DNA from: Cyanidioschyzon merolae
Lineage: Eukaryota
Strand: one strand, 5' to 3'
DNA length: 64,000 bases
Assembly (NCBI GenBank): GCA_000091205.1
Contig: AP006484.2
Part shown: in pieces, positions 22,085 through 53,025 of the stretch
Position numbering within the stretch: position 1 is the first letter of the stretch
Layout: each line of letters begins with the position of its first letter
The notes under the pieces: model-generated
The model's database searches: none
What the model saw: only the letters and a program-made list of their open reading frames with translations
Told to the model about the DNA's origin: nothing
Program-made: the position numbers and the translations under genes

Positions 22085-22660
22085 GCTGGCCTATTTTTCA
22101 GATGACAAATCGTTTACATTGACCATGGATCGCAGCATTCGGAATGGAGAATGGCTTTCGGGAAAGCGTCCATCATGAAGCACCTCCCTTCAAGTTCCAT
22201 TACCAGTACTTCTTCTTATCAGATATACAGGTCGTTTCGTATGTTGTGTCGTGCGCCGAGCCTGCCGAAAGCGACAGCAATAGCGCATATACCGCTGAAG
22301 CAGGTGCGACACGGAGACAGAACGGCTTTGCCATTACCAATGAAAGCGTCGACTCGAGGCGTGGTTCCTCCGACATAGGGTCGGAGCACATAGTAATTCT
22401 GGGAGCCTGCAAGCTGCCCAGACGGACGTGCAACCTGCGACAGCGCGAAGCGATATACTAGGAGTCCGCTGCGACCAGGGCGACGCCCGGGCGCAGCATA
22501 ACTGCGCTTATTCCCGGAAGGAACTGTGTTGAGGACGAGCTGTTCATGTCTCGCCACAGCACCCGCCACTGGGGGAGCACGAAGCACGAGCCCGGGACAC
22601 TCGTCCGGCTCGCGGGGCCTTCTACCTAGAAGGTAAACTTTCGAAGATACGGGAACTTTT
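22085..22660 (-). repeat. Copy A of a ~590-bp non-coding repeat family (minus orientation), left arm of the head-to-head inverted pair
   Basis: Reverse complement is near-identical to 23428-24015. The track shows identical 122-aa and 105-aa artefactual ORFs on opposite strands in both arms, with one substitution (H/Y). Confidence 0.85.
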
Positions 22661-23427
22661 CACCGTTCCAACGCTCATTATCAAGGTCAAAAGAAACTGT
22701 TATCTAGTTGCTGGTCAGTGTTTAGTTTCTGTTCTTTCTTCCCTAGGAGAATGCTCTCTGCTCGCGGCCTGGCACAACTGGAGGGCCCACCAGTCCGAGG
22801 ACTAGCCTTTGTTGCCGCTGTTTCTATGCAAAGCTCTGCCGCGCGCGCTCCTTCTCTCTTTCTCTCTCTACATTCTCCTGTCCGCGCCCTTGGCCAAAAC
22901 TCTGAAAAGATATCGCTCGCGTCACTCGTGTTCCTATGTAGGGTATATAGATACGCACTCACAGACGCCTCCGGGCCTTTCCTTGACGGGCCGCGTGCTA
23001 CCGGATTCAGCTTCTCCTCGTACACTACGAGCCTGTCATCGTTTTCTGCTGCTGCCTCCGGCCCTCCGTTCGTTGCGGCCAAGGTCCCTGTCATGGGCTT
23101 CCTTCCCCGTCGCTCGAACACCCCGAGTGAACCCACTTTCAGAGCTTCGCCGAAACAACTAGACCTCTCAGACGGGGGTGGTGTGTGTGGGGCTTTAAGA
23201 TACTTGCTCTTTAGTACACAGTCTGTGGCTAGTTTGTTTTGTTGTTTTTTTCTTTTGTGTTTGGGCAGGTGTCTCCGTCTTGATTGGCTGCGTATCGATG
23301 AATATCACGCGTCGTGTCTCATGCCTGCCTGATCTCCCAGGCGCGCTCACCAAGCGAACTATAGAATCACGTACAGAGACTCATGACTAACGCGCAACGA
23401 TATGAAAATTTCCCCCTCTGAGCTAAA

Positions 23428-24015
23428 CGTTAAAAAGAGGAAAAGCTTCCCGTATTTCAGAAAGTTTACCTTCTAGGTAGAAGGCCCCGCGAGCCGGACG
23501 AGTGTCCCGGGCTCGTGCTTCGTGCTCCCCCAGTGGCGGGTGCTGTGGCGAGACATGAACAGCTCGTCCTCAACACAGTTCCTTCCGGGAATAAGCGCAG
23601 TTATGCTGCGCCCGGGCGTCGCCCTGGTCGCAGTGGACTCCTAGTATATCGCTTCGCGCTGTCGCAGGTTGCACGTCCGTCTGGGCAGCTTGCAGGCTCC
23701 CAGAATTACTATGTACTCCGACCCTATGTCGGAGGAACCACGCCTCGAGTCGACGCTTTCATTGGTAATGGCAAAGCCGTTCTGTCTCCGTGTCGCACCT
23801 GCTTCAGCGGTATATGCGCTATTGCTGTCGCTTTCGGCAGGCTCGGCGCACGACACAACATACGAAACGACCTGTATATCTGATAAGAAGAAGTACTGGT
23901 AATGGAACTTGAAGGGAGGTGCTTCATGATGGACGCTTTCCCGAAAGCCATTCTCCATTCCGAATGCTGCGATCCATGGTCAATGTAAACGTTTTGTCAT
24001 CTGAATAATCAGGTG
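23428..24015 (+). repeat. Copy B of the ~590-bp repeat family (plus orientation), right arm of the inverted pair
   Basis: Begins taaacgttaaaaagaggaaaagcttccc... and ends ...ggtcaatgtaaacgttttgtcatctgaataatc. The 5' end faces the 770-bp spacer, as does the 5' end of copy A. Confidence 0.85.
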
Positions 24016-24210
24016 CGCATCGGACACGTGCCTGTCACCTGTCCGCGCGCCGCAACGCCGGATCCGGATGCAGCGATACACGTCGCATAACCCGAGATGC
24101 GGGCGCTTATGCATCACTGCATACACGCATGACGGGCGTCCATGTAACACCGAACGCGCCTTTTTGTTCATTGTCTAGACGAGTTAAAAGGTTGATTATC
24201 CTGTGAATTG

Positions 24211-24888
24211 ATGACGTCGCAGACACTTGAGAACAGCGAGGACACCGAGAGCCGGCGGGTGGGAACGCTAGCCGACCGCGAGCTCGTTGCCGAGCTCATG
24301 TACCCGACCTCCGAAGAAAGCGCGTTCAGTTGTTTCCGGTGCGAAAACTGCGCAAGAACGGTGTGGGTGTGCCTTTGCGGCGCCGAAATAGTGCCCGGAA
24401 CGACACGGACGGAAGATCTTGTACCCTTACGTCGGGAAGGAGGGCGTTTGTCCCTGGTATCCTCGGGGTGGTCGGCTGCGAGTCAGTGTTCCACAGTCGG
24501 GTCGCCGTCGCTAAAAGCGCCTCCAACTCCAACAGCTGGCCATCGGGTGCCATCATGCGATCCTGTGCTGGATGTGAAGTACGCGGCAAGCAATGGACCG
24601 GTGCTCGGCGATGATGGAAAGACGGTGTTTTGCAGCATGGACTGTTATTGGAGTGCGTCGTTGGACCCAAATTGTCAGCGGATTCGCCTGGTTTACGAGA
24701 GAAAGGGCGCGCGCCCTAAGATTCTGGAACGTCGATGCGGTAAACCCGGCGGCACATTGGAGGCGGGAGCGCCTTGTCGTCCGACACGCGGGCGTCCGCC
24801 AACCGATGAGCGAGGAGCACCCGCCGCGTTGCTGCATCGCCGCCCCGATGCCATCGAGTGCAACGCGGGGGCGTCGTCACCGCAGCTG

Positions 24889-24920
<32 letters not shown>

Positions 24921-25158
24921 CCGCGTCGATGTATCCAAGAGGCTGCTCCAGAAACAAGCACAGCTACTGCGAATTCCGCAGTCGACGCGCACTGCAGAAG
25001 AAAACGATGCCTCGCTCTGGGACCGTCTGCGGTGTGGGAACCAGTGCCATCAGTCGGGTGATGTACAGCATGCGATGTACGAGCACCATGCCTACTTTGG
25101 AGGAACCTTCCGCCGAACGGTTGGTGTTGAAGTGCTTCGACGATACACCTGGTGCTGA
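24211..25158 (+). CDS. Hypothetical Cys-rich protein (possible zinc-binding protein)
   Basis: ~315-aa ORF. Cys clusters CFRCENCARTVWVCLCG and VFCSMDCYW, a poly-Ser run, no confident family assignment. The track start at 24208 is TTG; the ATG is at 24211. Confidence 0.3.
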
Positions 25159-26674: not shown

Positions 26675-28697
26675 TTGCGAGACGCTATCAGAAACCATGT
26701 CGACTCGTTCGCCAAGAGTATTGTCAAGGCGTCGTCAGGATTGGTGCATTTGGCGAGGGAGATGCATTGCAACGTGACGCACATGGAAACGGTCGAGATT
26801 CCGAATGAGTTCTTCGATAAGACCTTTACTCGTCACCTGATGCTTGGTACAGAGGAAACGCGGAAGGAAAATGAGCTGGTGCAAATCCTCCACGAAAAAC
26901 ATCCCCTTTACAGCTTCAATGGTACTCGATACTAGGCTTACCGGGATATTTATCCATATGGGCCCATGAAGTACCCCACGAATCTGAAGGACCATTTGAC
27001 GGTGAACCTCGAACGTTTCATGATACGTGCCGTGGTTACACTCTACCTGGGCCTATCTCGCAATGGAAAATGGGCGATTATCAATGGCGTCACGAACGAC
27101 CGCAAGCGTGAAGATGAGGTCGAATTTGTCGACAAGAAGACATCACGCAGGAGCACGAATGAAGCTTCTGGAATCCGTGCGGTTACAGAAGAGCACCGTG
27201 CGGTACTGGGGTTGGTTCATCCAACAGACAAGATATCAGAGTTGAAAAAAGACAAGGAAAGATACTATCGCCTCGTCCTGCGATATTTCGTGTTTTTGGA
27301 CCGAGAACTCGAACACAAGGTGGAGATGAAGCTGAATGGCGAAAAATGAAGAGTGGGAGAGACCGAAGGCTTTCCTAAAGGGGAAGCGCTTAAACGTGGT
27401 TCCAATGTGCAACATCAGGTCACATTTCGTGACTATCGACTCCAGAATCCTTTACGGCATCATGAAAGGGATCAGTACCGTGTTCAATGTTAGCAGGGAA
27501 TACTTCACCGGCGAAAACCGGGAGACGTACTGGAAGAATATCTTCGATTTCAAACGCCTGAGAGTGAGCAAGCAGAAATTGTTCACTGGGATGATCGAAA
27601 GCGATGGAGTAGCCTTGTGTGTACACGATCGGCGGTTGAAGACAAATCGTCCAGTTCCGCCCTCGGTCTCGCCCGTGCCGAAGCGTGAAGAAAAGGAGGC
27701 GGATCCTGTGACGCAGGAGGTGGAGGATAACGACCTTGTCGTTGATGCGGTGAAGCATGAAGAAAACAAGCAGGCGGATCCTGAGACGCAGAAAGTGCAT
27801 AACAACGACTTTGTCGTTGGCGCGGACCCCGGAAACACAAATATCATAACCATCGCAGTACCCAAACGTGCGGAGGATTGTACTGACGGTAACTTACGTC
27901 AGAAAGACATACGTATTTTTAAGTTCTAAAGATAGAGGCATTACCGAGAATCCGGTATAATAAATGCGAAGAAGAAAATCGGGACATGGAATGCAGGAGT
28001 CAAAGAGCACCTTGAAGCTTTGAGCGAGGTGACGAGCCGCGGAATAGACTTTCAAACTTTTCGGGAGTTCATGAAAGTTCTCGTTCCTCATTGGTAGGCG
28101 CTGTGGGAGGCGTATACAAAGCCCCGGTGGGCTCGTCTGCGTATGAACGTTTACTGCGGGAAACAGCGTGCATTCGCGAACTTTTTCAATGAGTTGAGTG
28201 CCTTCACAGATGATGAAAGTCACAGGCTCGTAGTAGCGTACGGAGCAGGGCGCTGGGCGTCGAGAACAGGTACTACGCCAGTTCCGTCAACAAGAACGTA
28301 CAAGGAGTGCGCGAGGCATTTTGCCGCAATGCCTGTACATGTGTTCCGAACATCGTATACACACCACGACTTGGAGTGCACACTTCTGAAAGTCGAGGTG
28401 GAAAAGTGCCAGCGGAGCCCGGAGGATATCAAATTGTACGGACCGCTGAAGGAAGAGCAAATGGAAAGCAGGGCAAAACTTCGAGAGCTACTTGCGCTTG
28501 TGTGCACAACCAATGATGGCAAGAAACGTATAAAATTCCTGTATCGCGACTTTAAGGCCGCTATCAATATGAGGACATGTGCAGTGCTGGAGAACAGAGC
28601 TCCGGAATGGACAGGAGGGAATTTGTGGGGCAACATCTCAAAGTGGAACTATATGAGAAACAATTGGAACCATTCGTACGTGACCGGTCGAGGATAA
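26675..28697 (+). pseudogene. Pseudogenised TnpB/Fanzor-like nuclease ORF (copy 1)
   Basis: Frameshifts between the N-terminal fragments. In-frame TAA AGA TAG at 27927-27935 (shared with copy 2). Copy-specific TAG at 28095-28097 where copy 2 has GAT. Confidence 0.5.
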
Positions 28698-28812
28698 CTG
28701 GGAAGCGTCTGCACCTCAGTGGATGACCTCGTGTCTGGGGCGCGTCACTCGCCAATATTCTACTCCGCTGGCGGCAGCGTTTTTCTTCTGAAAGGCGTTT
28801 GTTGTTGCTGGC
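26675..28812 (+). mobile_element. Degenerate TnpB/Fanzor-like (RuvC-fold, OrfB_IS605-type) element, copy 1, including the conserved 115-bp 3' flank; 5' boundary uncertain (could extend to ~26400)
   Basis: Fragmented ORFs at 26675-26935, 26966-27349, 27336-27929 and 27936-28697 are co-linear with paralogous fragments at 50918-52555 (minus). RuvC-I-like [16 protein letters not shown] (Asp codon ~27825). RuvC-III-like RDFKAAINM (~28549). Zn-ribbon-like FRTSYTHHDLEC. Reconstructed protein ~670 aa. Homology with copy 2 continues 115 bp past the stop, to ~28812. Confidence 0.5.
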
Positions 28813-32842: not shown

Positions 32843-35173
32843 TCAAGGTTTCCAGCCCCAGACTTCGAGCACGACACATTCAAACTCGCCAAGGGATACC
32901 TCATTCGCGGGCGCATCGAGACAGAGCGGCGGGTTATCGAAGGTTTCGCTGTACCCCGAAGTTCCGGATAGCAACGCGTCATCCAGTGAGAGCGCGAAGT
33001 GGGCGCCCCCGCCAACGGCGATGAAACGCGGTCCCGAATACTGGAAGAATGTATTCTTGCCGGTCCAGGGATAAGGTTCAACGTGTCCCTGAGCATCTGC
33101 TCGGAAGACGAAACACTCACCGGTCCCGTAGAAGGTGCTCGCGTTCGATCGCCAAGTCTCTGTGACGAAGGCCCCGAAAACATGACCAGCACGATCCCGC
33201 ACAGCAACAACGCTCTGCGAAGCGTGCTGGGTACGGTGGTAAAACGTATAGAGCGATGCCCCATGAATCGCGGTGGAGTACACGAGACACCAGACCGCGT
33301 CTCGATAGCGATGTGGCAGTGCGTTTCGTAGGGACTCGAAATGATCAGGCGAGAGCACTTGCGAGTGAAAATTCGCCGCTAATGTCACTGTGGCTGTTGC
33401 TGGAGCAGTGACAGCGGTAGTGGCGCCTGCTGGAGGCAGCGCGACCAATGACGACGACGACGTCGACGACACCACTCTTGACGTATGCATTCGAGACGAT
33501 CCCTCAGGTGCTTCTGAGCATGTATGCGCGGGATACGCAGCGACGTCGCAAGTCGATGACGTCCTCGTTCTAGCCGGACTCTCAGATGCCTCCCCGGATA
33601 CATGCGCACGGTCCATAGCCGAGTCGTGCGCTTCAGGCGCTCCGCGTGTCGCAAGAGGCGCAGACTTGTCTGCTGCGGTGCTTCTTGTCTCTAAAGCCGG
33701 CGAAGATGCCGCAGCACGCATTGCGCTCGAGTGGACGCGAGCATGGGCACTTCCATCATCGGCCGATTCCCGCTCTAATGATGGAACCGGGAAAGCGTCT
33801 GTCGTCGCTTTAGCAGCTGGCTGGCTCGGAGGCCATGCATCGACTCCACTCGCTGGGCTCCATTGGCTACTGATGTTGTCGTCGTCGTCGTCGGGAGCCG
33901 AAGCCTGCGACCATACCCACCGGCTTAGCATCCGACCAAAACTGCCCCAGAGATCATTTCCCGTTCCAGCGTCTTTCGTCGACTGCTCCGATCGGGCAAT
34001 GTCGATCGGATTTGTTGAGACATTCGCAGCCGAGGCAGCGCTGGGAGCTTGCCTCTCTTCCAGCTCATCGACGGTGCGCTGCTGGACAGTGATCTGCTCC
34101 AATAAAGCCGATATGGTCGTATTGCGGCAGAGAAACGCAAGTCTCTCCGTATCTGCTCCAGAATCCGTTTGAGCATCTGCTCGAGGTGTGCACGGCGAGC
34201 AGTCCACCTCCAGCCATGCCCATTCCGCGGGATTGATGAGCTGCTGGAAATCCTCAGCACAAGCCGGACGAATCTTCCAGCGTCTTCGAGTTGGTCCCAA
34301 TGGAAGTGTGATGTTATTCGCCTTATTGTCGTCGTCGTCGTCGGTATGAAGCGCGTCGGCTCCCAGCTGCCGCTCCAGGATGCACTGCAACACTGCAAAA
34401 GCCGACGGATTCGTGGGCGGAACAAGGTTGACAGAGCCTTCAAACGTAGCGTTGCCTACCCGAATCCAACCCACAAGGCTTTGTTGATGGCTGTTCGATG
34501 AATGATGATCCGCATGACTCGTGGCAGAACGTGCTGAGGTCGCTGGAGACGCGCTCCGGCCACTACTCTGTGGTGTGGCCGGCTGGATCGTGCACCAAGT
34601 TTCTGGACCTGCTTCTCTCACCGCGTCCTGCAAATAACGCTGGAGCAATTTTTGGAGCCGAACAATGTCAGCACGCAGGCTCTCTACTTCTCTTTCCACT
34701 AGTCTCCGACTGAAACGCATCTGGTCTACCTGGGTTCGCATCGCGGCGAGCTCCGCTTCCCAGCGATGTCTTTCCCAGGAACGACGTTGGTCGTCCATAC
34801 ATCCAGCAGCTTCTAAAGCTGCATCTGTGCGGATAACAGGTGATTGTTCGGGTGTCCGCTGCTGTTGTTTCTGCCCCACTGATACCCGCGGTTGCGTACC
34901 CGGTGGTGACAGTTGCTGGTCGGCGGAAGCGTCGGGTTGCTGCGGGTCAGGTCGAGTCCCTTTTCCTGCCTCCGAACGCGACGAGGCTTGCGGCTCCTTT
35001 CGATTATCGAGCACAAGAGCGCTCTTGCCCGAGTTCGTGTAGTTCAGGGGCGCTTGCTGCACGAAGCGGAACGGCTGTTCCAGGGAGACGCGTTCGCGCT
35101 CGTTCACAGTACCAGCAGCAGCAGCAGTTGCTGCTGCTGCTGCTGACTGCCTGGTACGTTCGTCCACATCCAT
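32843..35173 (-). CDS. TLDc-domain protein (OXR1/NCOA7-like C-terminal domain) with a long low-complexity N-terminus
   Basis: 776 aa. C-terminal ~160 aa LPHRYRDAVWCLVYSTAIHGASLYTFYHR...GAFVTETW...GTGECFVF...NTFFQYSGPRFIAVGGG...GEFECVVLEVWGW matches the TLDc domain pattern. ATG at 35173. Confidence 0.65.
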   Translation of the reverse strand: MDVDERTRQSAAAAATAAAAGTVNERERVSLEQPFRFVQQAPLNYTNSGKSALVLDNRKEPQASSRSEAGKGTRPDPQQPDASADQQLSPPGTQPRVSVGQKQQQRTPEQSPVIRTDAALEAAGCMDDQRRSWERHRWEAELAAMRTQVDQMRFSRRLVEREVESLRADIVRLQKLLQRYLQDAVREAGPETWCTIQPATPQSSGRSASPATSARSATSHADHHSSNSHQQSLVGWIRVGNATFEGSVNLVPPTNPSAFAVLQCILERQLGADALHTDDDDDNKANNITLPLGPTRRRWKIRPACAEDFQQLINPAEWAWLEVDCSPCTPRADAQTDSGADTERLAFLCRNTTISALLEQITVQQRTVDELEERQAPSAASAANVSTNPIDIARSEQSTKDAGTGNDLWGSFGRMLSRWVWSQASAPDDDDDNISSQWSPASGVDAWPPSQPAAKATTDAFPVPSLERESADDGSAHARVHSSAMRAAASSPALETRSTAADKSAPLATRGAPEAHDSAMDRAHVSGEASESPARTRTSSTCDVAAYPAHTCSEAPEGSSRMHTSRVVSSTSSSSLVALPPAGATTAVTAPATATVTLAANFHSQVLSPDHFESLRNALPHRYRDAVWCLVYSTAIHGASLYTFYHRTQHASQSVVAVRDRAGHVFGAFVTETWRSNASTFYGTGECFVFRADAQGHVEPYPWTGKNTFFQYSGPRFIAVGGGAHFALSLDDALLSGTSGYSETFDNPPLCLDAPANEVSLGEFECVVLEVWGWKP

Positions 35174-35596
35174 GAGTGGGCAGCAGAGCGCGCTTCAGCG
35201 TAACCTGCGTGGACGCTCACGGCATCCAGCTCTGTCGAGCGCTGTTTGCTCGCTGGTCACGAAACGCTCGAGCGCTTGCGCCTTACGGCGACTCGCGGGT
35301 CTCGAGCTTCGGTAGTCACTGTGATAGCGTTCAGACAAAAACCTGATGAAAAACTTGCACACCGATCTGGTCGAAGCGGAGAAGCTCAGCGGCGTTATGA
35401 GGGAGAGGAATCCCGTCTGTAAAGTCAGGTACGATGCGGATGGTGAGCCATTCTGGTCTTTCAAGTAAATTTTATTGCACCATTGCTGCAGTGTATAGCC
35501 GGAGATCGAAACCACGATGCAACGTACCGTATCGAAAACGAACAGACACGAACTTTTACATGGTAACGAGATAACAATTTCGTTCGACCTGTGCGG

Positions 35597-36190
35597 TAAA
35601 CGTTAGAGGGGAAAGCTTTCCGAATCGTCGAAAGTTTGCGTTCAGAGCGAAAGGTCCCTAGAACTGTACGAGTCTGCAGGGCTAGTGCTTCATGCTCTCA
35701 CAAGTGGCTGGTGCTTTGGCGAGACGTAAGCAAATCGTCCGCAACAAAGGTTATTCTGGGACTAGGAGGGGGTAGGCTGTGTCGGGGCGTCGCCCTGGTC
35801 GCAGTGGACTCCTAGTACATCGCTTCGGGCTACAGGCAGTAGGTCTGTCTCCGCAGCTTCCTGGCTCCCGGCATGCTTATGTACTTCGACCCTCTGTCCG
35901 GTGAGCCACGCCACGCGGAGATGCCCGCAGTGGTATGGCAACGCCGTACAGTGTCCTTGATGCATCCGCTCCAGCGGCATAACTGCTATTACGAATGCAG
36001 CAGGGGAGGTACTCGGTGCAAGATAGAACGTATGGAACAACCAGTACATCCGAAAGGAAGTATACACAATGGGAATTGCAGCTAGGGTGCAGCATGATAG
36101 ACACTTTCCCCAAAGCCAATACCCATGCATTCCGCATCCTGGAATCCAAGGTCAACGTAAACGTTCTGTCATCGGCAAATAATCCGTTGC
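35597..36190 (+). repeat. Copy C of the ~590-bp repeat family (diverged, plus orientation)
   Basis: Shares with copy B the 5' block taaacgtta..gaaagctttcc..gaaagttt, a 33-mer gggcgtcgccctggtcgcagtggactcctagta (1 mismatch), GTGCTTC.TGCTC...AGTGGC.GGTGCT.TGGCGAGAC, ggaggtactcggtgca, atccgaaaggaagt, and the 3' block ggtcaacgtaaacgttctgtcatcgg.aaataatcc. Confidence 0.75.
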
Positions 36191-36198
36191 GGTCTTAT

Positions 36199-36625
36199 CC
36201 ATCCTGTCTATGATATCCAATATTATACGTTTTCAGAATCTTCCTCGATGCAGCGTGTCCATAGAGCTCACTGCCATCCTGTCTATAATGTCCAATATTA
36301 ATCGTTTTCAGAACCTTCCTCGTTGCAGCGTGTCGATGGCGCTCACTGCCATCCTGTCTATAATGTCCAATATTATCCCTATTCAGAACCTTCCTGAATG
36401 CAGCGTGTCGATGGCGCTCACTGCCACCCTGTCTATAATATCCAATATTATCCCTATTCAGAATCTTCCTCGATGCAGCGTGTCGATGGCGCTCACTGCC
36501 ATCCTGTCTATAATATCCAATATTATCCCTATTCAGAATCTTCCTCGATGCAGCGTGTCGATGGCGCTCACTGCCATCCTGTCTATAATATCCAATATTA
36601 TCCCTATTCAGAACCTTCCTCGATG
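36199..36625 (+). repeat. 75-bp minisatellite, ~5.7 tandem units, immediately 3' of repeat copy C and in frame with the bromodomain ORF
   Basis: Unit cagcgtgtcgatggcgctcactgccatcctgtctataatgtccaatattatccctattcagaaccttcctgaatg (75 bp = 25 codons). The track ORF translates MQRVDGAHCHPVYNIQYYPYSESSS three times. Confidence 0.9.
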
Positions 36626-38632
36626 CAAGTCCCCGCGCCATTCCCGCATACTCCGCTGCGCCCTCTGGTTCGTATTTGCGACGTGCAGCGCACCAGTTCC
36701 ACCTGGATGCGTCGTACCCGCCAGCATGCACCCTTTGCTGGTAACAGTATATCCTATAGCGCTCGGGAAGATGACGGTTTCCCCGATAGAGAGGATCCCG
36801 GCGATCTCGCCCTCCCGGACGACAGCTGGTCGGCGACGGGCGACGACACCGAGTCCAGTGCAGCGACGACTCGGCGCCAGCGGGTAACGCGGCGGCGAGG
36901 TCGGGCTTCGTCTCCGAGCACCGACACCAGTGAGCCTGCGCGTCAACGACAGCGACGCTCGCGCACCTCTCACATCAGTGTCGGTGACGAGTCCGGACAA
37001 CGACCGACTATCCGGACGCGCTCGGCATCGTCGCTAGAAGCAGGCGGCGTGCCCCGAGCCACTTCATCTGATCAGGATACGTTTCGGAATACCGTGGCTA
37101 TTCTCATTGAGCAGGTACGGCAGCATGATCGTTATGGGTTCTTCTGTGCCCCGGTTGATCCGGAGGAGGCGCCTGACTATCACGAAGTGATCCCAGAGCC
37201 GATGGATCTCGGTACCATGCAGAGGAAGCTCGAGACAGGCAAATATCGGCGCCTCGACGAAGTTGAGCGTGACCTAGATCTTATCTGGCGCAACTGTTTC
37301 ACATATAATCCAACAAATAGCATTTACTACCGCGAGGCGGCACGAATGCAAAAGTGGGCGCTGAAACGGGTCCAGTGGGCGCGTCAGCGACTCTGCGGCA
37401 TTACGGGAGCGCCCAGTCCCGCCGAAGGACAAAGCTTCAGTACGTCAACGCATTCTCGTGATGAAAAGGTACAGCACACCCATTCGAGGATGGTGAAAGG
37501 CGTATCGCGTGGGTCCGCGGTGGCTCTGGACTCGGCACCGCGGATGACGGTACGACTCCAGACAGAACGTCATCGGGACCCGGCTGCAGTGCCCGGCACG
37601 AGCTCGGAGCTGCCTACCGCAACCGAAACTGAAGGCAAACCGAAACCCGTTGCCGAAATGGATGTTGTTCTGGATGAGGCGCTGGACCCAGAGGCATCGT
37701 ATGCGGTGGCAGCGCAGGACCCTGGCGCCTTTATCGAGCGCGTATGGCGAGCGTTCGTGACTCGCCAAGAGCGCTTGCGTATCGAGAAGGAGCACGAACG
37801 ACTGTATCACTATCCGCGTCACAGTTCGGAGGGCGAGCGTGCTGCTGCTGACCTAGCCAGGACGATGCTTTCGCAATGGCTCGGGAAAACGATCAAACGG
37901 GCTCCGAACGATGCGGAGAAATATTTGCTGGAAATTCTTTCCGCTGCAGAGCTACCCGCCGAAACTCTCCAGCGAATGGCAACAGCATTCACGAGTCAGC
38001 AGCAGAACGGAGCAACTGCAGCAGCATCTGTTGAGGAAAACCCGTCTTTGAAGTCGAGGCCTACAGTCGGACGTGGTACACATGCAGCCGCTTCGCATGA
38101 CGATGCCCAGACCCGAGGAGCGAGTGCTTCAGCAACGGACGACTCGCCCGAGACATCAAAGGACGCGTTCATCGCCTCGCGTTGGTATGCCTTGCGACGC
38201 TCTCTTGCAGCGCTCCGGTTGGCCCAGATACAGAACGCACCCCTTTCCGAGCAACTCCGCCGCTATGATACGGTGCTCGCGCTCCTAGCACGCCAGTTGG
38301 AGACCATCCCGCCACGATTGCTCTTAGCCGAGGGTGGAGTCGAGAGCATCCGCGCATTTGCGCAGCGCCTTGTCCAATATGAAGATTCTCGTGCCGAAGA
38401 CGCAACGCCAAATGCTGAGAGTTCTGGACAAACACCGATGGCGAGTGATCCAGATGCGACGCAGCCGCAAAAGGGTGCTACAGATGGCCATAGCGTCGGT
38501 CATCACCCGGCAGCGACACCAGGAGCCGCTCATGCAAACGATGGGGGCGCTCAGACGGATCGCCCGCATGACATCAAAGTCGACGGCGTTTTTTCTGCGG
38601 GGAACGCAACTATGCTCAGACCGCAGGTTTAG
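36398..38632 (+). CDS. Bromodomain-containing protein (start codon uncertain; N-terminus may include minisatellite-encoded 25-aa repeats)
   Basis: Bromodomain FFCAPVDPEEAPDYHEVIPEPMDLGTMQRKLETGKYRRLDEVERDLDLIWRNCFTYNPTNSIYYREAARMQKWA (conserved Y...N pair). Alternative ATGs lie downstream of the repeats (~36623, ~36695). Confidence 0.7.
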   Translation: MQRVDGAHCHPVYNIQYYPYSESSSMQRVDGAHCHPVYNIQYYPYSESSSMQRVDGAHCHPVYNIQYYPYSEPSSMQVPAPFPHTPLRPLVRICDVQRTSSTWMRRTRQHAPFAGNSISYSAREDDGFPDREDPGDLALPDDSWSATGDDTESSAATTRRQRVTRRRGRASSPSTDTSEPARQRQRRSRTSHISVGDESGQRPTIRTRSASSLEAGGVPRATSSDQDTFRNTVAILIEQVRQHDRYGFFCAPVDPEEAPDYHEVIPEPMDLGTMQRKLETGKYRRLDEVERDLDLIWRNCFTYNPTNSIYYREAARMQKWALKRVQWARQRLCGITGAPSPAEGQSFSTSTHSRDEKVQHTHSRMVKGVSRGSAVALDSAPRMTVRLQTERHRDPAAVPGTSSELPTATETEGKPKPVAEMDVVLDEALDPEASYAVAAQDPGAFIERVWRAFVTRQERLRIEKEHERLYHYPRHSSEGERAAADLARTMLSQWLGKTIKRAPNDAEKYLLEILSAAELPAETLQRMATAFTSQQQNGATAAASVEENPSLKSRPTVGRGTHAAASHDDAQTRGASASATDDSPETSKDAFIASRWYALRRSLAALRLAQIQNAPLSEQLRRYDTVLALLARQLETIPPRLLLAEGGVESIRAFAQRLVQYEDSRAEDATPNAESSGQTPMASDPDATQPQKGATDGHSVGHHPAATPGAAHANDGGAQTDRPHDIKVDGVFSAGNATMLRPQV

Positions 38633-40387
38633 GGAAGCGCGGAAAAATGTCGCCAATTCGTGCATTCGCTTTCCTGAGGCGTAACGTTTGTCGCCCAACG
38701 CGCTTCGTGATCGGCAGTGATGGCTCCTCACTTCACCAGATACGTCTCTGAAAGCCGCATGACTCACGATAAACGCCTTGTTTGCTTCCGAAGAGTTGCG
38801 AGCGGCACTTGTGTAGCACCGAGGCGGCGTCCATGTGCGAATGCTTTCAGCGACACGCGCCGGCTTGCTACTGTGTCCGAAGCTCATTGCGCAGCTGCGG
38901 TGGTTTCGTGAACGTCACCACCTAGACGCGCGTGGCAAGTGCGCTGGAGGTGTCGTGGAGGTCCCTTTGGTTATCGCCGTTGTGTTTGCTGGCGAAGCAG
39001 ATGGATGAACCGAGGATTGCCCGCTGTCTGGTGGGTATGCTGGGGCTCCACCGCGCTTCGGCATCGGAACGCTGATGGAGAACATTGCACTGAAACCGCT
39101 TCCAAGAAAGACACGGCGTCATCGGACTCCAACATGGAAAGGCACCGACACGCTGGGAAGACTAACCGGATTGAAACCGCTTCCACGAGAGATGCGGCCC
39201 CGTCCATGACTGTCTTTGGGGAACTCTCCATATGGGCAAGTCCTCACTGAACAGGACACCTACGCAAATATACTCTGATGACGAGCTCGCCATATGTCAT
39301 GCGTGGTCGGATCCAGTAACACCATTGCCCTCTGGATGCCGGTTCAACATCCTTGCGCCCCAATAGAAGACCAGATATGGACAGGGAATAGACTCCGGGT
39401 GTACATCCACGGCAGAAAACTCGGATGTGCACGCTAAAGCTGGGGTCTCTCGTATGCGTTATCATCAACACCAGCCGTTGCAGGCATTCTTCGTTGGATA
39501 CTTGCTCATCCTCCACTGTCCTCGGGTTTCAATACGCCGGTCGCGACTGCTCCCGGAGGTCCGTTGTCAGCGGTCGAAACGTGTTCATTGCTGGGAGTGA
39601 GTCCCGATCTCTCTGCTTCCGCTTGTTATTGTGGAGTTTCATGTACACGTAAAAGTCGCGATCTGCGTTTCGCTTCCCGTTGTTGTCTTCTTCCTGTACA
39701 GCCTCGTCGTGCACATCGCAACGGTGAAACTTGACTGTGGTCAGGTGCTTCCAAGAGTCGGCTACACACCATGCTCCGAAGGCGGAGCTGTATCGCGTGA
39801 ACGCTTGGTTCATCGCTCGACTCGGGCGCTCGAAGGGAACAAGAGGCCCCGCTCAATGTCGTAATCCGGTTTCACGCCAGATACCATACCCGACGATCCG
39901 GGGCTTTTTCTTCCAGGTATTATTGTCGCCGAGTAGTCTGTCTGCTGCACAAGTAGATGCAGGCGGTTCCATTCGGCAGAGGATTTGTGGTGCGCGATAA
40001 TGCCCACCATGAAACATGTACCGGAAGCAGCATCCAGTTTGGAGAAGAATCCGAAAATCTTGGATCCGTCTACGCTTGCTTCGTGGAAACCGGTGACGCG
40101 CTCTCCACTGGAAGCGAATGTTGCGGTGGCTAAATTACGAGTCCAAGACTTTTTTCCATGCAAACAGAAGAGACTCTGCACTCAACCAGCATATCCGGTT
40201 AGAGGGATCGTGTCGCTGCTGCATTCAGTTTCGCGGATGGCCATCGGAAAGCCTAGGATTTGTATTTCGAACGGATTCCTTTCATGGATGTCGAAAATAA
40301 GGGGTTTTTCGACATGAGCTTGCACGCAAGCAGTCAAGTAACGACGTCTACCGTATTGATTGCCGCCTATCCAGCGGCGTTGATCGC

Positions 40388-41674: not shown

Positions 41675-44431
41675 TCACGACATCGACGACGAAGCGTTCG
41701 GTCTGCCCGGTGCATTCAAGGGATCCCCGCTCGCGCCGCCTGCGCCTTGCGAGTTCTTCTGTACGCGTGAGGTGTGACGCCACAAATTCGGAGGCCGCTG
41801 CCGCTTATATTTGACCCAGAAGAGGCCACAGGCGTTGCAGAGCCGCTGCTCCTTGTTCTCTCCCTGACGCCACCCCGGTGTCTCTGTCGTACCGCAGTTG
41901 GCACAGCTCAGGGGCATCTCGGGTGTCGCGCTTTTAGCCCAGGTTGCACTGGATGACGGGCGCATGCCCTTCAGCGCAGAGCTCACCGCAACTTTCAAGT
42001 TGCCTGCACTCGCGGACGTTCTTGGTATCGCTGTTCGTCCTGTGGATGCCGGGGCAGCAACCCGGCCTAAACCGTCAAGCGGGCGTTGCATCGCGGCCGT
42101 CAACGGGTGCAGTGGTCTGCTGTGTACCAGAGCTTGGGCAGACGACGTCGATGTGGTCGTTATCGCCCCCGCTGGCGCTACTTTGCCAGGCATTGCCCGG
42201 GCGAGGGTCTCCTCGTAGGACCCGTCCATAGCCGCAGCAACAAGCCGTCTGGGTAACGCTGCGGCACCGGCCGTGGACGCCTGTTCCGTCACCTGAATCA
42301 TCGACTCTAAATAGGGGATACGCTTCCCGCGCGTATTCGTGCGTTCCCATAGATAGTCTCGAAGTGCGCGCAGCTCTGCAGCAGCCACTCCGTAGGGCAA
42401 GTCTTCGCGCAACGAGTCCAAAGGCACCGCTTCGACCTGTTCAGCAAGCTCCGGATCCAAGACAGTATCCAGTAACCAGTCTAGGTCGAGACCGTCGTGT
42501 TGCAGTTGCTGTACTTTGGCACGGAACGCTCCATAACATCGCTCAAATTGTGCTAAGCGAGCTTCCTGCTCATCTTCAAGCTTTCTCTCCCAGGCAAGCA
42601 CATCATTTTTCCACTGTTGAAGTAGTCGCTCGTGCTCCTTCTCCGGTGATAGCAGCTCATCCACGATTCGATGCGCCATGAGGCCAGCATCCGTCACATA
42701 GCGACGCAACGAGTTTGCGTAAGCATCCAAGGCTAAAAAGGTGCGTCCCTGCAGAGGTCGACAGGGATTCGCCCTGTACAGACTCGCTGCTCCGACCGAA
42801 TCTCCGTGCAGATGCTCCTCATGAGGGCATTGTGAACGCGACGATTCCTTGGTTGCCTGATCTGTTGGGCGCACCGTGAACGGCGCTGTCGTTATCGACG
42901 TAAGCGGACGCTCTCGAAGCGACCATCCGGGCCGTTTCCGCGAGATCTGACTCAGCAGGTGCCGAAACGAAACAGCCGAACGAGGCGCTGGTCCAGCCAC
43001 CAGACCAGTATTCGTATCCTTCAACGCAGCAGAGCGCGAATAGCGTTGCCGCAGCCACTCTTTGGCCATCACCTCTTGGAGATGCAGATACGAGGAGGAG
43101 ATCCGACTGAGGAGAGACGGCCACCATCGATGCTGCTGTTGCACGAGTTCGAGCCAGAGCGGCTGGCGAGCGCCACCGCTCCCTGAACTAGATTCATTTT
43201 TGGCATAACGAGGCCCGCCGGCACCCGCTTCCGTCCCTTGAACATCATTCACCGCAGACGCTTCGCTCCGCGTCAGGTTGGTTTGGTTCCCGCCATCGCT
43301 TTGAGAGGCAATGTTTCGCGAGGCTACGGTAACTGATCCCTGCTCGAGAAGTGAGATGCGAATCGCTAGCATCGACGGCTGACCAGTCGTAGAATGCTCA
43401 CGGTCCGCAGGCACGAGTGCGGTTGAGGCGGCAGTTCGACGAGGCTGCTCCGCTGACGACTCCCCCGGACTCGAGTCCTCGCTAGGAAGACAGCTCGCTC
43501 GAAAGCGCACCGTCGATGGCCACGTGCTCGTATCGGAACGTTCAGGGACTACCGAAGCACGTTGGGTATACGAGCTGACTGCAGCGTCGCCAGTTAACTG
43601 CCGCTCATTGCTCCCGACTGGAGCCTGTTGTGACTCATTCAAGGATGAAGCATCACTTTTGGCATGTGCTCGAGGGCGACTCTGCCGTGGATGCGAACGC
43701 AGAAAGCGCTCGACGGCTTCTCGCAAGGTCGGCTCGTTCCGCAGGCGAAGAAGCCGTTCTCGGGCATTTTTCCAGGCTTTCCGTGCTTCCTGTTTACAAG
43801 CCTTGCCAGCTTGATAAAAAATGGAGTCTGGTGGGTTAAACTGGAAACAGTTACGCCAGACCAAGTCGCAGTCATGCAGCACTTGGCTGAAGCTCGTATA
43901 CGCCGCGCTCTCGATCCGCTGTCTAATCGTTCCCAGGTCCATGGGCTCTTTGATGATATCTAGATAGGCGGGAACGGCTACCGGGTCGACGGGCTCCGCA
44001 AATATTCGATGTATGTCACGCCTTTGGATGCCATCGATCGCTTTCAACAGAATGGCTTTAATGGAAGGCCAAGCGTTTCCGAGTTCTCGCTCGGAAATCG
44101 TCACGACAGCACTGCGGGGACGTTTCCGCTGTCGAGTTCGCTCGACGGTGCCGCTGTTGATCCTCTTGGACCTGGACTCGCCAGGCGGTTCGTAGGATGT
44201 GTTTGTCTCTGTCAAGTTCGATGCAGATAATCCTCCAAATGAAACATTCGGTGTCGCTTGAGGCCCGTGTGCCATCGATGCATCTTGGTTGCCAGCTACC
44301 GACAGTGTACGGTTTTCGCTCCCCAGCTCGGTAGCACTGGGCACAATTGTTTGTGTGGCACCAGTTGCAGCTGTACTTGTCGTTGCGTCGACTTTGGTAG
44401 TCGAGTGCGTTGCGCTTCCAGAGATCTCCAT
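41675..44431 (-). CDS. Bromodomain protein with a C-terminal GATA-type zinc finger
   Basis: Bromodomain IFAEPVDPVAVPAYLDIIKEPMDLGTIRQRIESAAYTSFSQVLHDCDLVWRNCFQFNPPDSIFYQAGKA. GATA finger CANCGTTETPGWRQGENKEQRLCNACGLFWVKYKRQRP (C-x2-C-x18-C-x2-C, plant-like spacing) near the C-terminus at ~41.9 kb. The track start at 44446 is GTG; the ATG is at 44431. Confidence 0.7.
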   Translation of the reverse strand: MEISGSATHSTTKVDATTSTAATGATQTIVPSATELGSENRTLSVAGNQDASMAHGPQATPNVSFGGLSASNLTETNTSYEPPGESRSKRINSGTVERTRQRKRPRSAVVTISERELGNAWPSIKAILLKAIDGIQRRDIHRIFAEPVDPVAVPAYLDIIKEPMDLGTIRQRIESAAYTSFSQVLHDCDLVWRNCFQFNPPDSIFYQAGKACKQEARKAWKNARERLLRLRNEPTLREAVERFLRSHPRQSRPRAHAKSDASSLNESQQAPVGSNERQLTGDAAVSSYTQRASVVPERSDTSTWPSTVRFRASCLPSEDSSPGESSAEQPRRTAASTALVPADREHSTTGQPSMLAIRISLLEQGSVTVASRNIASQSDGGNQTNLTRSEASAVNDVQGTEAGAGGPRYAKNESSSGSGGARQPLWLELVQQQHRWWPSLLSRISSSYLHLQEVMAKEWLRQRYSRSAALKDTNTGLVAGPAPRSAVSFRHLLSQISRKRPGWSLRERPLTSITTAPFTVRPTDQATKESSRSQCPHEEHLHGDSVGAASLYRANPCRPLQGRTFLALDAYANSLRRYVTDAGLMAHRIVDELLSPEKEHERLLQQWKNDVLAWERKLEDEQEARLAQFERCYGAFRAKVQQLQHDGLDLDWLLDTVLDPELAEQVEAVPLDSLREDLPYGVAAAELRALRDYLWERTNTRGKRIPYLESMIQVTEQASTAGAAALPRRLVAAAMDGSYEETLARAMPGKVAPAGAITTTSTSSAQALVHSRPLHPLTAAMQRPLDGLGRVAAPASTGRTAIPRTSASAGNLKVAVSSALKGMRPSSSATWAKSATPEMPLSCANCGTTETPGWRQGENKEQRLCNACGLFWVKYKRQRPPNLWRHTSRVQKNSQGAGGASGDPLNAPGRPNASSSMS

Positions 44432-44937
44432 CAAAACCCACGACACTCAGGATAGTACAGTCTTGTGTGGCTTGCTTCGAGCGCTCTCGCGCCCACTGTT
44501 CAGCGTTCGGGCTGGAGAGGCGGCGCGGCTCAGGTGTGATGCCCCGAGGTCGCCACGCTGCCTCTCCCTGCAGGAGAGTAACTCCGTTCGAAGGGTTTCG
44601 AGCCTTCAATTGCCCTGCAAATCAAAAGCAAAGTCCTGCCCCGCGCCAGAGACGCTGCAGTGAAACGTCTGCGCCGCGTCCTGGAAGCTCACCGGCGGGA
44701 GACACCGAGCGCACGCGCGTTGGCGCCTAGTCCAACGATGAACCCTAATCTTGTTCGACGCTGGCGAAGAACTCTCCAACACTTTAGCGCTCCAGCAAGC
44801 GAACTTGCCGCCGTTTGCCTCTGAAAGAAACGTCCTAGTAGTGAGCTCGTGGAGCACGATTGCTATGAAAGTCGACGTTGGCCAGCACGACTGATACGGA
44901 TCCAGCCTCGCGTTCGGGTCAGCCAAGTAACCCGGAT

Positions 44938-45101
44938 GCGATAAACTGTATACATAGGGATGAAATGGGACAGAATTCTCCTCTTCGTCACCTGAACGCC
45001 AACTTGATTGCTAAACGATGCGATAAACTGTATACATAGGGATGAAATGGGACAGAACTCTCCTCTTCTTCACCTGAACGCCAACTTGATTGCTAAACGA
45101 T
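44938..45101. repeat. Tandem duplication, 2 x 82 bp
   Basis: gcgataaactgtatacatagggatgaaatgggacagaa(t/c)tctcctcttc(g/t)tcacctgaacgccaacttgattgctaaacgat occurs twice back-to-back. Confidence 0.9.
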
Positions 45102-50777: not shown

Positions 50778-52690
50778 CGGTGCCAACGACGAACGCTTCA
50801 GAAGTCGAAAGCAGTCGCCGTCACGGGTACAGTAGTGGCGGCGAACGCGCCTTGGACAAATTGGCTCCAAATGACGTGCAGATGCTTCCTAGGCTTTCTC
50901 GCCCGGCCACCTCCAACTTATTCCAACTGTTTCTCATATAGTTCCACTTTTAATGATTGTCTAACAAAGTTCTCTCTTGTCCATTCTGAAGGTCTTCTCT
51001 CCAGCACCGCGCTTGTCTTTACATTGATAAGGGCGTTCAAGTTTCGATTTGCAAACTCCATACGGTTGTAGCCGTTGGGAGTTGTCCTCATCAGTGCAAG
51101 CAAACCTCGAACTTTCGCACTCCTTTCCATTTGCTCTACCGTCAGCGGTCCGTACTTTGCTAGTTCCTCAGGGCTCCGTTGGCACTTTTCCATCTCCTCC
51201 CTCTGAGGTGTACACCCCAGTTCATGGTGTGTATACGATGTTCGGAACTCGTCTACAGGTATTGTGGCAAAACGCCTCGGGCACTGCTTGTACGTTCTCG
51301 TCGTTGGAGCTGGAGTAGTCCCTTTTTGTGTCTTCCATCGGCCTGCTCCGTACGCTACAACGAGCCTTTGACCCTCGTCCTCCTTCGGGGCGCTCAACTG
51401 ATTGAAAAAGTTGGCGAACGCCCGCTGCTTACCGCAATACAGATTTATTCGCAAACGAGCCCACCGGGGCTTGGTATACTCCTCCCACAGCGCATCCCAA
51501 TGGGCAACACGAACTTCCATGAATTTCCGAAAAGCTGTAAAGTCCGCCCCGCGGCTCGTCACCTCGCTCAAAGCTTCCAGGTGATCCTTCATTCCTGCAT
51601 TCCATGTCTCGATTTTTTCCTCGCATTCATTATAACGGATTCGCGGTAATGTCTCTATCTTTAGAACTGAAAAAGACGCATGTCGTTCTGACGTAAGTTG
51701 CCGTCAGTACCATCTTCCCCACATTTGGGTGCTGCAATGGCTATGATATTTGTGTTCCCGGGGTCTGCGTCAACGATAAACTCGTTATCCTCTACCTACT
51801 GCGTCGCAGGATCCTCCTCCTTCTCATCTTCATGCTTCGCCGAAGGCAAAGCCGCGGGCGGAACATGGCGATCCGCCTTCAACCGCCGATAGCGTACACA
51901 CGTTGCCACTCCATCGGTTTCGATCATCCCAGTGAATGCCTTTTGTTTGCTCGCTTTCAGAAGTTTGAAACTGAAGATGTTCTTCCAGTACGTCTCCCGG
52001 TTTTCGCCGGTGAACTCCTCCCTGTTCACATCGAACTCCGGACAGATAACCCTCATGATGCCATAAAGGACTCTGGAATCGATAGTCATAAAATGTGACT
52101 TGATATTGCACATTGGAAACATGTTGCAGCGCTTACCCATTACGAAAGCCTTCCGTCTCTCCCACTCTTCATTTTTTCCTCACTCAGCTTCATCTTCGCA
52201 TTGCGTTCGAGTTCTCGGTCCAGATACTCGAAATACCGCAGGATGAGATAATAGTATCTTTCCGTATCTTTTTCCAAGTATGATATCTTTTCTGCTGGAT
52301 TCGCCAGCCCCAAGTCTGCGCGATGCTCTTGTCTAACTGCACGGATCTCAGAAGCTTCATTATTTCTCCTGTGTCATGTCTTCTTGTCGACAAATTCGAT
52401 CTTTCCTTCGTTCTTACTATCGTTCGTGATGCCATTGATGATGGCCGATCTCTTTCCTCTGGAGAGAGACCTCGGTACCGTGCAAACACGGTGCGTATCA
52501 TGATATGTTTCAGGTTCACAATCACACTGAGCTTCAGGCTCATGAGGTACTGCATCGCCCCGTCACAGTTGATTCTGGGACTCGGAGCGGGTAGCCTGCG
52601 TCTTGGCGTCGAGCTGGTTCATTTGGAATCCCAGGACCTCGTTTCGTGCAGCCACATCAAGTATGTCTGTCTGCACAACTTGTAGGCTCT
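50778..52690 (-). mobile_element. Degenerate TnpB/Fanzor-like element, copy 2 (minus strand), 5'-truncated, including the conserved ~140-bp 3' flank
   Basis: Fragments 52190-52555, 51796-52140 and 50918-51592 are paralogous to copy 1 (e.g. [70 protein letters not shown]). 3'-flank homology runs to ~50778. 5' homology with copy 1 is lost at ~52690. Confidence 0.5.
50918..52555 (-). pseudogene. Pseudogenised TnpB/Fanzor-like nuclease ORF (copy 2)
   Basis: Premature TAG (GAG in copy 1) near 51797. The same in-frame TAA AGA TAG as copy 1 near 51655-51666. A 1-nt deletion relative to copy 1 just downstream. N-terminal truncation. Confidence 0.5.
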
Positions 52691-52719
52691 CAGAATGATC
52701 ATCACCCCCGATCCCGTAT

Positions 52720-53025
52720 TGAATGCATCAAGCCTCCAGCCGACGTCTGCAGCGGTATGGCAAAGCTATTTTGCCGCTGTGATGCATTGGCATCAGCGGT
52801 GTAGGCGCTACGGCGGGTGCAGCAACGGAGGTACTCGGCGCATGATACAACGTACAAAACCACCAATAGATCCGAAAGGAAGTGAAACTAATGCAACTTG
52901 CAGGTAGAGTGAAGAATAATGAGCGTTTTCATTGATTTCAATATCCATCCTGCAAACTGGAATCCCAGGTCAACGCAACGATATTGTCATCGAAAGAAAT
53001 CGGACGACCAGCGTAATATGCGCCG
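52720..53025 (+). repeat. Copy D of the ~590-bp repeat family: 3' ~310-bp fragment, abutting the truncated 5' end of TnpB-like copy 2
   Basis: Aligns to the 3' half of copy C: cagcggtatggcaa, gatgcat, ggaggtactcggcgca, aacgtacaaaaccacc..atccgaaaggaagt, ggaatcccaggtcaacgcaacgatattgtcatcg. Confidence 0.65.

Follow-up and report, generated by a model that had tools for sequence, protein, structure and literature searches.

The region considered here lies in a 64,000-nt stretch of DNA from Cyanidioschyzon merolae strain 10D (contig AP006484.2; the whole stretch is referred to as the window), and comprises a gene for a bromodomain-containing protein together with a tandem array of 75-bp units immediately upstream of it. 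The array is a minisatellite at 36199-36627 (no strand assigned), reported by Tandem Repeats Finder (TRF) with a period of 75, 5.7 copies, 93% matches, 0 indels and a score of 718, and the same array was recovered by a repeat search and by self-BLAST of the window. Its copies are arranged head to tail, and the unit length falls within the minisatellite range of roughly 10-100 bp. An earlier, sequence-only reading of this DNA had extended the array to 36700, but it stops at 36627, and 36628-36700 is unique sequence.

The open reading frame (ORF) at 36398-38632 (plus strand, 744 amino acids) is identical by exact-sequence look-up to BAM78851.1 / XP_005535137.1, the “unknown bromodomain-containing protein” of C. 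merolae 10D, which sits on a 457,013-bp record. It begins with three 25-residue units of the form MQRVDGAHCHPVYNIQYYPYSE[S/P]SS, followed by MQVPAPF, and the public protein model already takes in these three units. Each of the three begins with ATG and has no stop in the bromodomain frame (36398-36622, plus strand; annotated residues 1-75), as the sequence-only reading had recognized. The two earlier units (36248-36397, plus strand) are closed in this frame by TAA at 36299-36301 and TGA at 36395-36397; the second of them, at 36323, starts with TTG instead of ATG and ends in that TGA. Stops had been correctly noticed in the earliest units, although the codons are TAA and TGA and not TAG. Beyond the units is a unique 84-nt tail (36623-36706, plus strand), which runs from M76 (ATG 36623) to W103, has zero ATGs between 36626 and 36706, and may be part of the 5' leader or, alternatively, an extension of 28 residues that is free of constraint. 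The tail leads into the conserved coding sequence of 641 amino acids (36707-38632, plus strand), which is delimited by orthologue alignment, Pfam and codon usage. The bromodomain itself (Pfam PF00439) occupies residues 237-315, or about 37106-37342, with E = 7e-25 and 87.3 bits against a cut-off of 21.7.

A typical unit contains two ATGs, one in the gene frame (ATGCAG) and one 13 nt later in the +1 frame (ATGGCG). The 10D units from 36323 onward each give the latter (36336, 36411, 36486 and 36561), and the ORF list includes a +1-frame ORF at 36210-36887 (plus strand) that passes through the array and ends 180 nt beyond ATG 36707. In 10D, a minus-strand ORF at 36195-36731 is likewise open across the array. 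The chance that a 25-codon unit is free of stops is approximately (61/64)^25, or ∼0.3 per frame, and because such units are not rare by chance and two other frames are also open, the openness of the array is weak as coding evidence. When the full-length protein was used to query a collection of 5.8 billion sequences, the repeat peptide was found in no other protein, and a scan of the 75-bp unit against viral contigs gave 0 matches.

Orthologues, natural haplotypes and coding constraint

The 90% cluster of the protein has 18 members, which measure 744, 719, 694, 669, 649 and 641 amino acids, among other lengths. (At the N-terminus of one metagenomic or metatranscriptomic member, P0011, with 648 amino acids, part of the bromodomain region is duplicated and joined to residue ∼120; this protein is probably an assembly chimera.) Exact look-ups of the 10D protein started at M26, M51, M76 or M104 found none of these forms in the collection. 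The homologue search returned only two more distant clusters, at ∼50% identity, one from Cyanidiococcus yangmingshanensis (KAK4533848.1 / KAF6000498.1) and the other from a metagenomic cyanidialean. On the corresponding contigs (L009 for C. yangmingshanensis and L010 for the other cyanidialean), the order of a TLDc-domain gene (minus strand), the bromodomain gene (plus strand) and a bromodomain-GATA gene (minus strand) is kept, and the two genes are therefore taken to be true orthologues. Both orthologous proteins (P0002 and P0003) start at a methionine that aligns with M104 (ATG 36707), and conservation begins exactly there. In C. yangmingshanensis an in-frame stop lies 37 codons upstream of the start with no ATG in between, so that neither a longer ORF nor an alternative start is available. 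TRF found no related array in either orthologous upstream region, and BLASTN of the intergenic region against both of these regions (word size 7) gave no meaningful similarity, including over the tail at 36623-36706. As judged from these comparisons, the array and all of the ORF upstream of M104 are confined to the lineage of C. merolae, and M104 is most likely the conserved start.

Variation within the lineage was examined in the DNA of eleven contigs that are ∼99% identical to the window, four of which are long contigs (L002, L003, L004 and L005) collinear with it over up to 20 kb. The array is spanned by three of these, with 3.7 copies in L002, 2.7 in L003 and 5.7 in L004, where the units are in a different order that includes two identical adjacent units; L005 begins within the array. 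The left boundary is identical in the three spanning contigs (...GGTCTTAT, followed at the array start by CCATCCTG). Array length is thus polymorphic in natural haplotypes, with 2.7 (L003), 3.7 (L002) or 5.7 copies (10D and L004) between the same flanks. The sequence-only reading had anticipated copy-number variation, and this is borne out, as upstream in-frame ATGs range from 0 to 5 among the natural haplotypes. For ten haplotypes, the number of Met-initiated units fused in frame to the ORF is 0 in L003, L015, L016 and L017, 1 in L014, at least 2 in L001, 3 in 10D and L002, at least 3 in L005, and 5 in L004. In L015, L016 and L017 a CAA to TAA change places an in-frame stop in the proximal unit, and in L003 the proximal unit has TTG for ATG and the next unit has a TAA. 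TAA and TGA stops occur in distal units of 10D and L003. The frame is therefore not open in all alleles of the gene, since four of the ten haplotypes lack a Met-initiated unit fused to the ORF.

Among 22 units (17 of them distinct), 26 different departures from the consensus were counted. Read in the frame of the bromodomain, these comprise 17 non-synonymous, 7 synonymous and 2 stop changes, where 72%, 21% and 7%, respectively, are expected from all single-base changes; because the counts match random mutation, purifying selection on the peptide is not indicated. Constraint was sought in every frame on both strands and none was found, the best case being frame +1 (10 of 26 changes synonymous versus 26% expected), and the variable unit sites are distributed over the three codon positions as 13, 4 and 8. 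The tail (84 nt, 10 haplotypes) has 4 polymorphic sites, all 4 non-synonymous and 0 at a third codon position, while the coding sequence (1926 nt, 12 haplotypes) has 25, of which 10 are synonymous and 15 non-synonymous; the 1040 nt downstream have 17. Relative to the coding sequence, the tail has a higher density of non-synonymous sites (odds ratio 6.4, Fisher p = 0.007) and a 3.8-fold higher overall polymorphism density (p = 0.03). Codon usage was scored as log-odds after training on ten of the window's long ORFs. For the coding sequence, this score is positive in frame 0 only (0.207, -0.178 and -0.304 for frames 0, +1 and +2). The units show no frame preference (0.042, 0.064 and -0.341) and rank in the lowest 8% of real coding-sequence windows, and the scores for the tail are 0.051, -0.224 and 0.129. 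On this sequence evidence, the units are not a maintained protein repeat.

Promoter-like motif and presumptive transcript ends

Of all 7-mers in the 400 nt that precede the conserved ATG, only CCAATAT is common to the three species, and it occurs at closely similar positions with respect to that ATG (-115 in C. merolae, -121 in Cyanidiococcus and -101 in L010). A shared 7-mer with this concordance of position arose in 0.14% of 5000 dinucleotide-preserving shuffles. In each orthologue, CCAATAT is present once in 1.5 kb of upstream sequence (either strand), beside a TATA-like run. In C. merolae the proximal copy is at 36592-36598 (plus strand), preceded by TATAAT at 36584-36589, and is a candidate promoter-proximal element; the motif also recurs every 75 nt through the array, at 36217, 36292, 36367, 36442 and 36517. 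Because the position of CCAATAT is concordant in the orthologues, it suggests that the segment that was duplicated held the ancestral promoter-proximal element of the gene. According to PMC12770821, neither TATA boxes nor transcription start sites are known for the endogenous promoters of C. merolae.

Seven of the contigs are only 3.1-3.6 kb in length and cover just 36445-40177 of the window. One of these, L012, matches 36689-39683 and then reads ten A's where the genome reads TGTCTTCTTC, and the long DNA contigs show no structural change around 39683. We take this position to be a polyadenylation site of a plus-strand transcript covering the gene (39683), with L017 ending at 39680 and L016 at 39707; the other short contigs end at 39846, 39861, 40002 and 40177. 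From the one poly(A) tail and the clustered 3' ends, we infer that the seven short contigs are derived from complementary DNA (cDNA). This origin fits the Poly-A and RiboMinus metatranscriptomes that the Joint Genome Institute made from the C. merolae-dominated Lemonade Creek (PMC11662350); a literature search for the JGI/ENA sample identifiers gave 0 matches that would link them to that study. Two side observations concern L012. Poly(A) after 39683 (38633-39683; L012 2980-3096) implies a 3' untranslated region of ∼1.05 kb, or read-through, and such a region is long for so compact a genome. In addition, residues 1-91 of L012 are a foreign, purine-rich sequence of 91 nt that ends in A11, is joined at 36689 and has no source in the window; the joint is probably a template-switch product or an assembly chimera with the poly(A) tail of another transcript.

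At the 5' side, three short contigs begin in repeated sequence, where assemblies break (36445, 36493 and 36548), two begin in the unique part of the proximal unit (36580 and 36589), and two begin downstream of the array (36683 and 36689). The sequence-only reading had stated that a transcript start past 36625 would make the array purely promoter or untranslated sequence; the contigs at 36683 and 36689 agree with such a start, while the five others begin inside the array. Because presumptive cDNA contigs reach into the units, the array appears to be at least partly 5' leader, and the fallback offered in that reading, of units resembling upstream ORFs or untranslated region, stays viable.

Readings of the array

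We consider the array to be a lineage-specific, fast-evolving, non-coding variable number tandem repeat (VNTR) of the promoter-proximal region and 5' leader of a conserved, single-copy bromodomain gene, and give this interpretation a probability of about 0.7. The array would most likely have originated by tandem duplication of a 75-bp segment, through slippage or unequal exchange, and this segment would have included the ancestral promoter-proximal CCAATAT / TATA-like element. The functional protein would most likely start at ATG 36707 (M104), or possibly at ATG 36623 (M76). The Met-initiated repeats of the 744-residue model would then be a by-product of a unit that happens to be free of stops in 10D, combined with the longest-ORF rule of annotation, and XP_005535137.1 / BAM78851.1 probably carries 75-103 residues that lie outside the conserved protein. 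Both the promoter-like motif and the upstream AUGs would vary in number with array length. If the messenger RNA (mRNA) includes the units, the +1-frame AUG of a unit would read through the real start, and the ORF at 36210-36887 would be an overlapping upstream ORF. Since each unit brings a promoter-like motif and AUGs, any phenotypic effect would be on the amount of protein and not through a maintained protein repeat; we infer such an effect on expression from these features of the units.

Several observations weigh against this interpretation. The CCAATAT motif was picked after the sequences had been inspected, and in the proximal unit it is mutated (to CCACTAT or CTAATAT) in six of the ten haplotypes; TATAAT is mutated in the proximal unit of two further haplotypes, with CAATGAT in the list of variants, and the function of both motifs is uncertain. 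When the sequences preceding the 12 long ORFs of the window were surveyed for TATA and CCAAT motifs, no common pattern and no typical leader length emerged. The contrast of non-synonymous to synonymous sites in the tail is not significant by itself (p = 0.27), the polymorphism tests involve few sites, and codon usage discriminates weakly for segments so short. The copy numbers are those of short-read assemblies, in which units that are nearly identical can be collapsed. ATG 36623 (M76) is intact in 10 of 10 haplotypes, and the stretch from M76 to M104 is never stopped or frameshifted. The cDNA status of the short contigs depends on one poly(A) tail and clustered 3' ends, and not on sample metadata. 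Finally, five of the seven presumptive cDNA contigs begin within the array, 34-178 nt before ATG 36623, so that some mRNAs probably carry unit AUGs, and initiation in frame in 10D would give an extended protein.

The array might instead be a neutral minisatellite of intergenic or leader DNA that does not measurably influence expression, in which case the annotation alone is affected. Fast turnover of the units and wide unit differences between haplotypes are as expected for such a sequence, as are the free mutation of the proximal-unit motifs, the lack of constraint in any frame and the raised polymorphism of the adjacent tail. The arguments on the other side are indirect: array length alters the distance from the upstream region to the gene by as much as 225 nt; it also alters how many upstream AUGs are present in a transcript that starts in the array, which usually changes output; and the concordant position of CCAATAT suggests that the duplicated segment was not an arbitrary one. 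On balance, neutrality is possible, although we find it doubtful.

The proposal of the sequence-only reading that the units are translated, as a variable N-terminal repeat of 25 residues or as alternative starts, would have copy-number change alter the chromatin reader itself. It draws on the three to five ATG-initiated units that run without a stop into the ORF in 10D, L002, L005 and L004, on a unit length that is a multiple of three, on the extension of presumptive cDNA contigs into the array, and on the use of the 744-residue ORF in the public annotation. Four of the ten haplotypes are without such a unit, three of them through the stop in the proximal unit; the substitutions fit neutrality in every frame; both syntenic orthologues have proteins that begin at M104 and have no array; frame 0 has no advantage in codon usage; and a typical unit also has the out-of-frame ATG 13 nt downstream, with two other frames open. 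A translated repeat is unlikely in light of these observations. Detection of the peptide VDGAHCHPVYNIQYYPYSESSSMQR would support translation of the units; other ORF peptides that can be sought in spectra are MQVPAPFPHTPLRPLVR, ICDVQR and TSSTWMR, and only peptides located after M104 would support the M104 start.

A more elaborate form of the VNTR interpretation is that the array is an amplified promoter module, in which each unit has a CCAAT/TATA-like element, its own transcription start, and one in-frame and one out-of-frame AUG, and which would act as a reversible dial. We rate this as quite improbable. If it were true, copy number and the ATG/TTG and CAA/TAA switches would together govern how much of a chromatin reader is made and which N-terminal isoform it has, in a eukaryote otherwise almost devoid of repeats and regulatory complexity. 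Although assembly errors are known to arise from tandem repeats, an assembly or annotation artefact is scarcely credible, as the same array and boundary, with related but distinct units, are found in at least 10 independent assemblies from different samples and sequencing centres.

The non-coding VNTR that we favor is of the same kind as the known promoter and leader VNTRs of yeast and human, and thus represents ordinary repeat biology together with an annotation correction. The C. merolae genome is extremely compact and poor in repeats. In yeast, promoter tandem repeats modify expression (PMC3516485), human promoter tandem repeats act as expression quantitative trait loci (PMC4857002), and at hTERT the copy number of the MNS16A minisatellite alters the number of factor-binding sites (PMC5438627). 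The C. merolae array resembles these systems in having units of tens of bp repeated head to tail immediately before a gene, a copy number that varies between alleles, a candidate motif (CCAATAT / TATA-like) in each unit, and a non-coding mode of evolution. It differs in that the units are ATG-initiated in the gene frame of the reference strain; because they are open there, they were annotated as protein.

Coding minisatellites form number-variable, in-frame protein repeats, for example in yeast cell-wall and adhesin genes (PMC2566889), and share with the C. merolae array a unit that is a multiple of three, a variable copy number and a frame that is open in some alleles. In C. merolae, by contrast, the frame is stopped in other alleles, there is no synonymous excess, and the units, which are not conserved in orthologues, precede the conserved start codon. 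There is also a likeness to leaders with upstream AUGs or overlapping upstream ORFs, since units in the mRNA would supply two AUGs per typical unit and the +1 ORF at 36210-36887 overlaps the start. An overlapping upstream ORF across the start codon is the classic repressive arrangement. Unlike those systems, the C. merolae array has no conserved upstream-ORF peptide, and its status as leader comes from presumptive cDNA contigs. Lastly, the case is similar to the over-extended longest-ORF N-termini of intronless genes, in that the annotated start is the first ATG and the orthologues and population data favor a downstream methionine; here the over-extension is made by a tandem repeat, and its length changes in steps of 25 residues between strains.

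The corrected protein model is relevant for anyone who tags, expresses or models XP_005535137.1. The array is polymorphic in natural Cyanidioschyzon populations, and could be used to tell strains apart in metagenomes from hot springs. In a model organism without a dissected endogenous promoter (PMC12770821), CCAATAT is a candidate cis-element.

Flanking genes and dispersed repeats

The array is situated in a 1.5-kb intergenic region shared by the bromodomain gene and its divergent upstream neighbour, the TLDc-domain gene (32843-35173, minus strand), an arrangement that is the same in L009 and L010. Downstream, and tail to tail with the bromodomain gene, is a gene assigned by Pfam to a second bromodomain protein, with a GATA zinc finger (41675-44431, minus strand). 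A literature search for the gene under study found only another C. merolae bromodomain gene, BRD1 (CMK212C). Rfam (E-value mode, 35100-36900) found nothing within the array and gave sub-threshold matches on a CAG/TGC microsatellite only; these are spurious microRNA matches to CAG/TGC trinucleotide runs at 35113-35150, near the 5' end of the TLDc gene.

Next to the array, and not part of it, is copy C of a dispersed repeat (35565-36191, plus strand; self-BLAST and multiple alignment). The family consists of 430-620-bp sequences, and copy C is ∼72% identical to an inverted pair at 22093-22709 (minus strand) and 23415-24017 (plus strand), whose members are 98.6% identical to one another, and ∼67% identical to a copy at 52564-52992 (plus strand). 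The adjacency of the array to the 3' end of copy C had been pointed out before and is real, with a gap of about 8-25 nt. The accompanying suggestion, that the array was seeded by the element, finds no backing: in a multiple alignment with flanks, homology among the four copies stops ∼20 nt before the array; the same flank of the other three copies has no unit-like sequence; and local alignment of the unit with the repeat flanks and with the array's own flanks gave P = 0.09-0.8 throughout in comparison with shuffles.

Each copy of the dispersed repeat lies directly upstream of, and points to, an unrelated gene. By Pfam and ORF assignment, these are a Cpn60/TCP-1 gene (19842-21626, minus strand), a Gly-rich ORF (24211-25158, plus strand), the bromodomain gene, and a DJ-1/PfpI gene (53193-55301, plus strand). 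We considered whether the repeat might itself be a gene, and it is not clearly coding, given that frames shift between copies in tblastx and that a minus-strand ORF of 122 amino acids has no Pfam match; the repeat looks non-coding and is possibly promoter-associated.

Two further duplications occur in the window. At 44935-45101, a unit of 82 bp is duplicated in tandem (2 copies, 98% identical). A seed taken from this unit has one match in L002 and two, 162 nt from each other, in L003, so that this repeat appears to be polymorphic as well. The segments 26960-28807 and 50784-52561 form an inverted duplication of ∼1.85 kb, with ∼78% identity and a separation of 24 kb, and one end of this duplication abuts copy D of the dispersed repeat.

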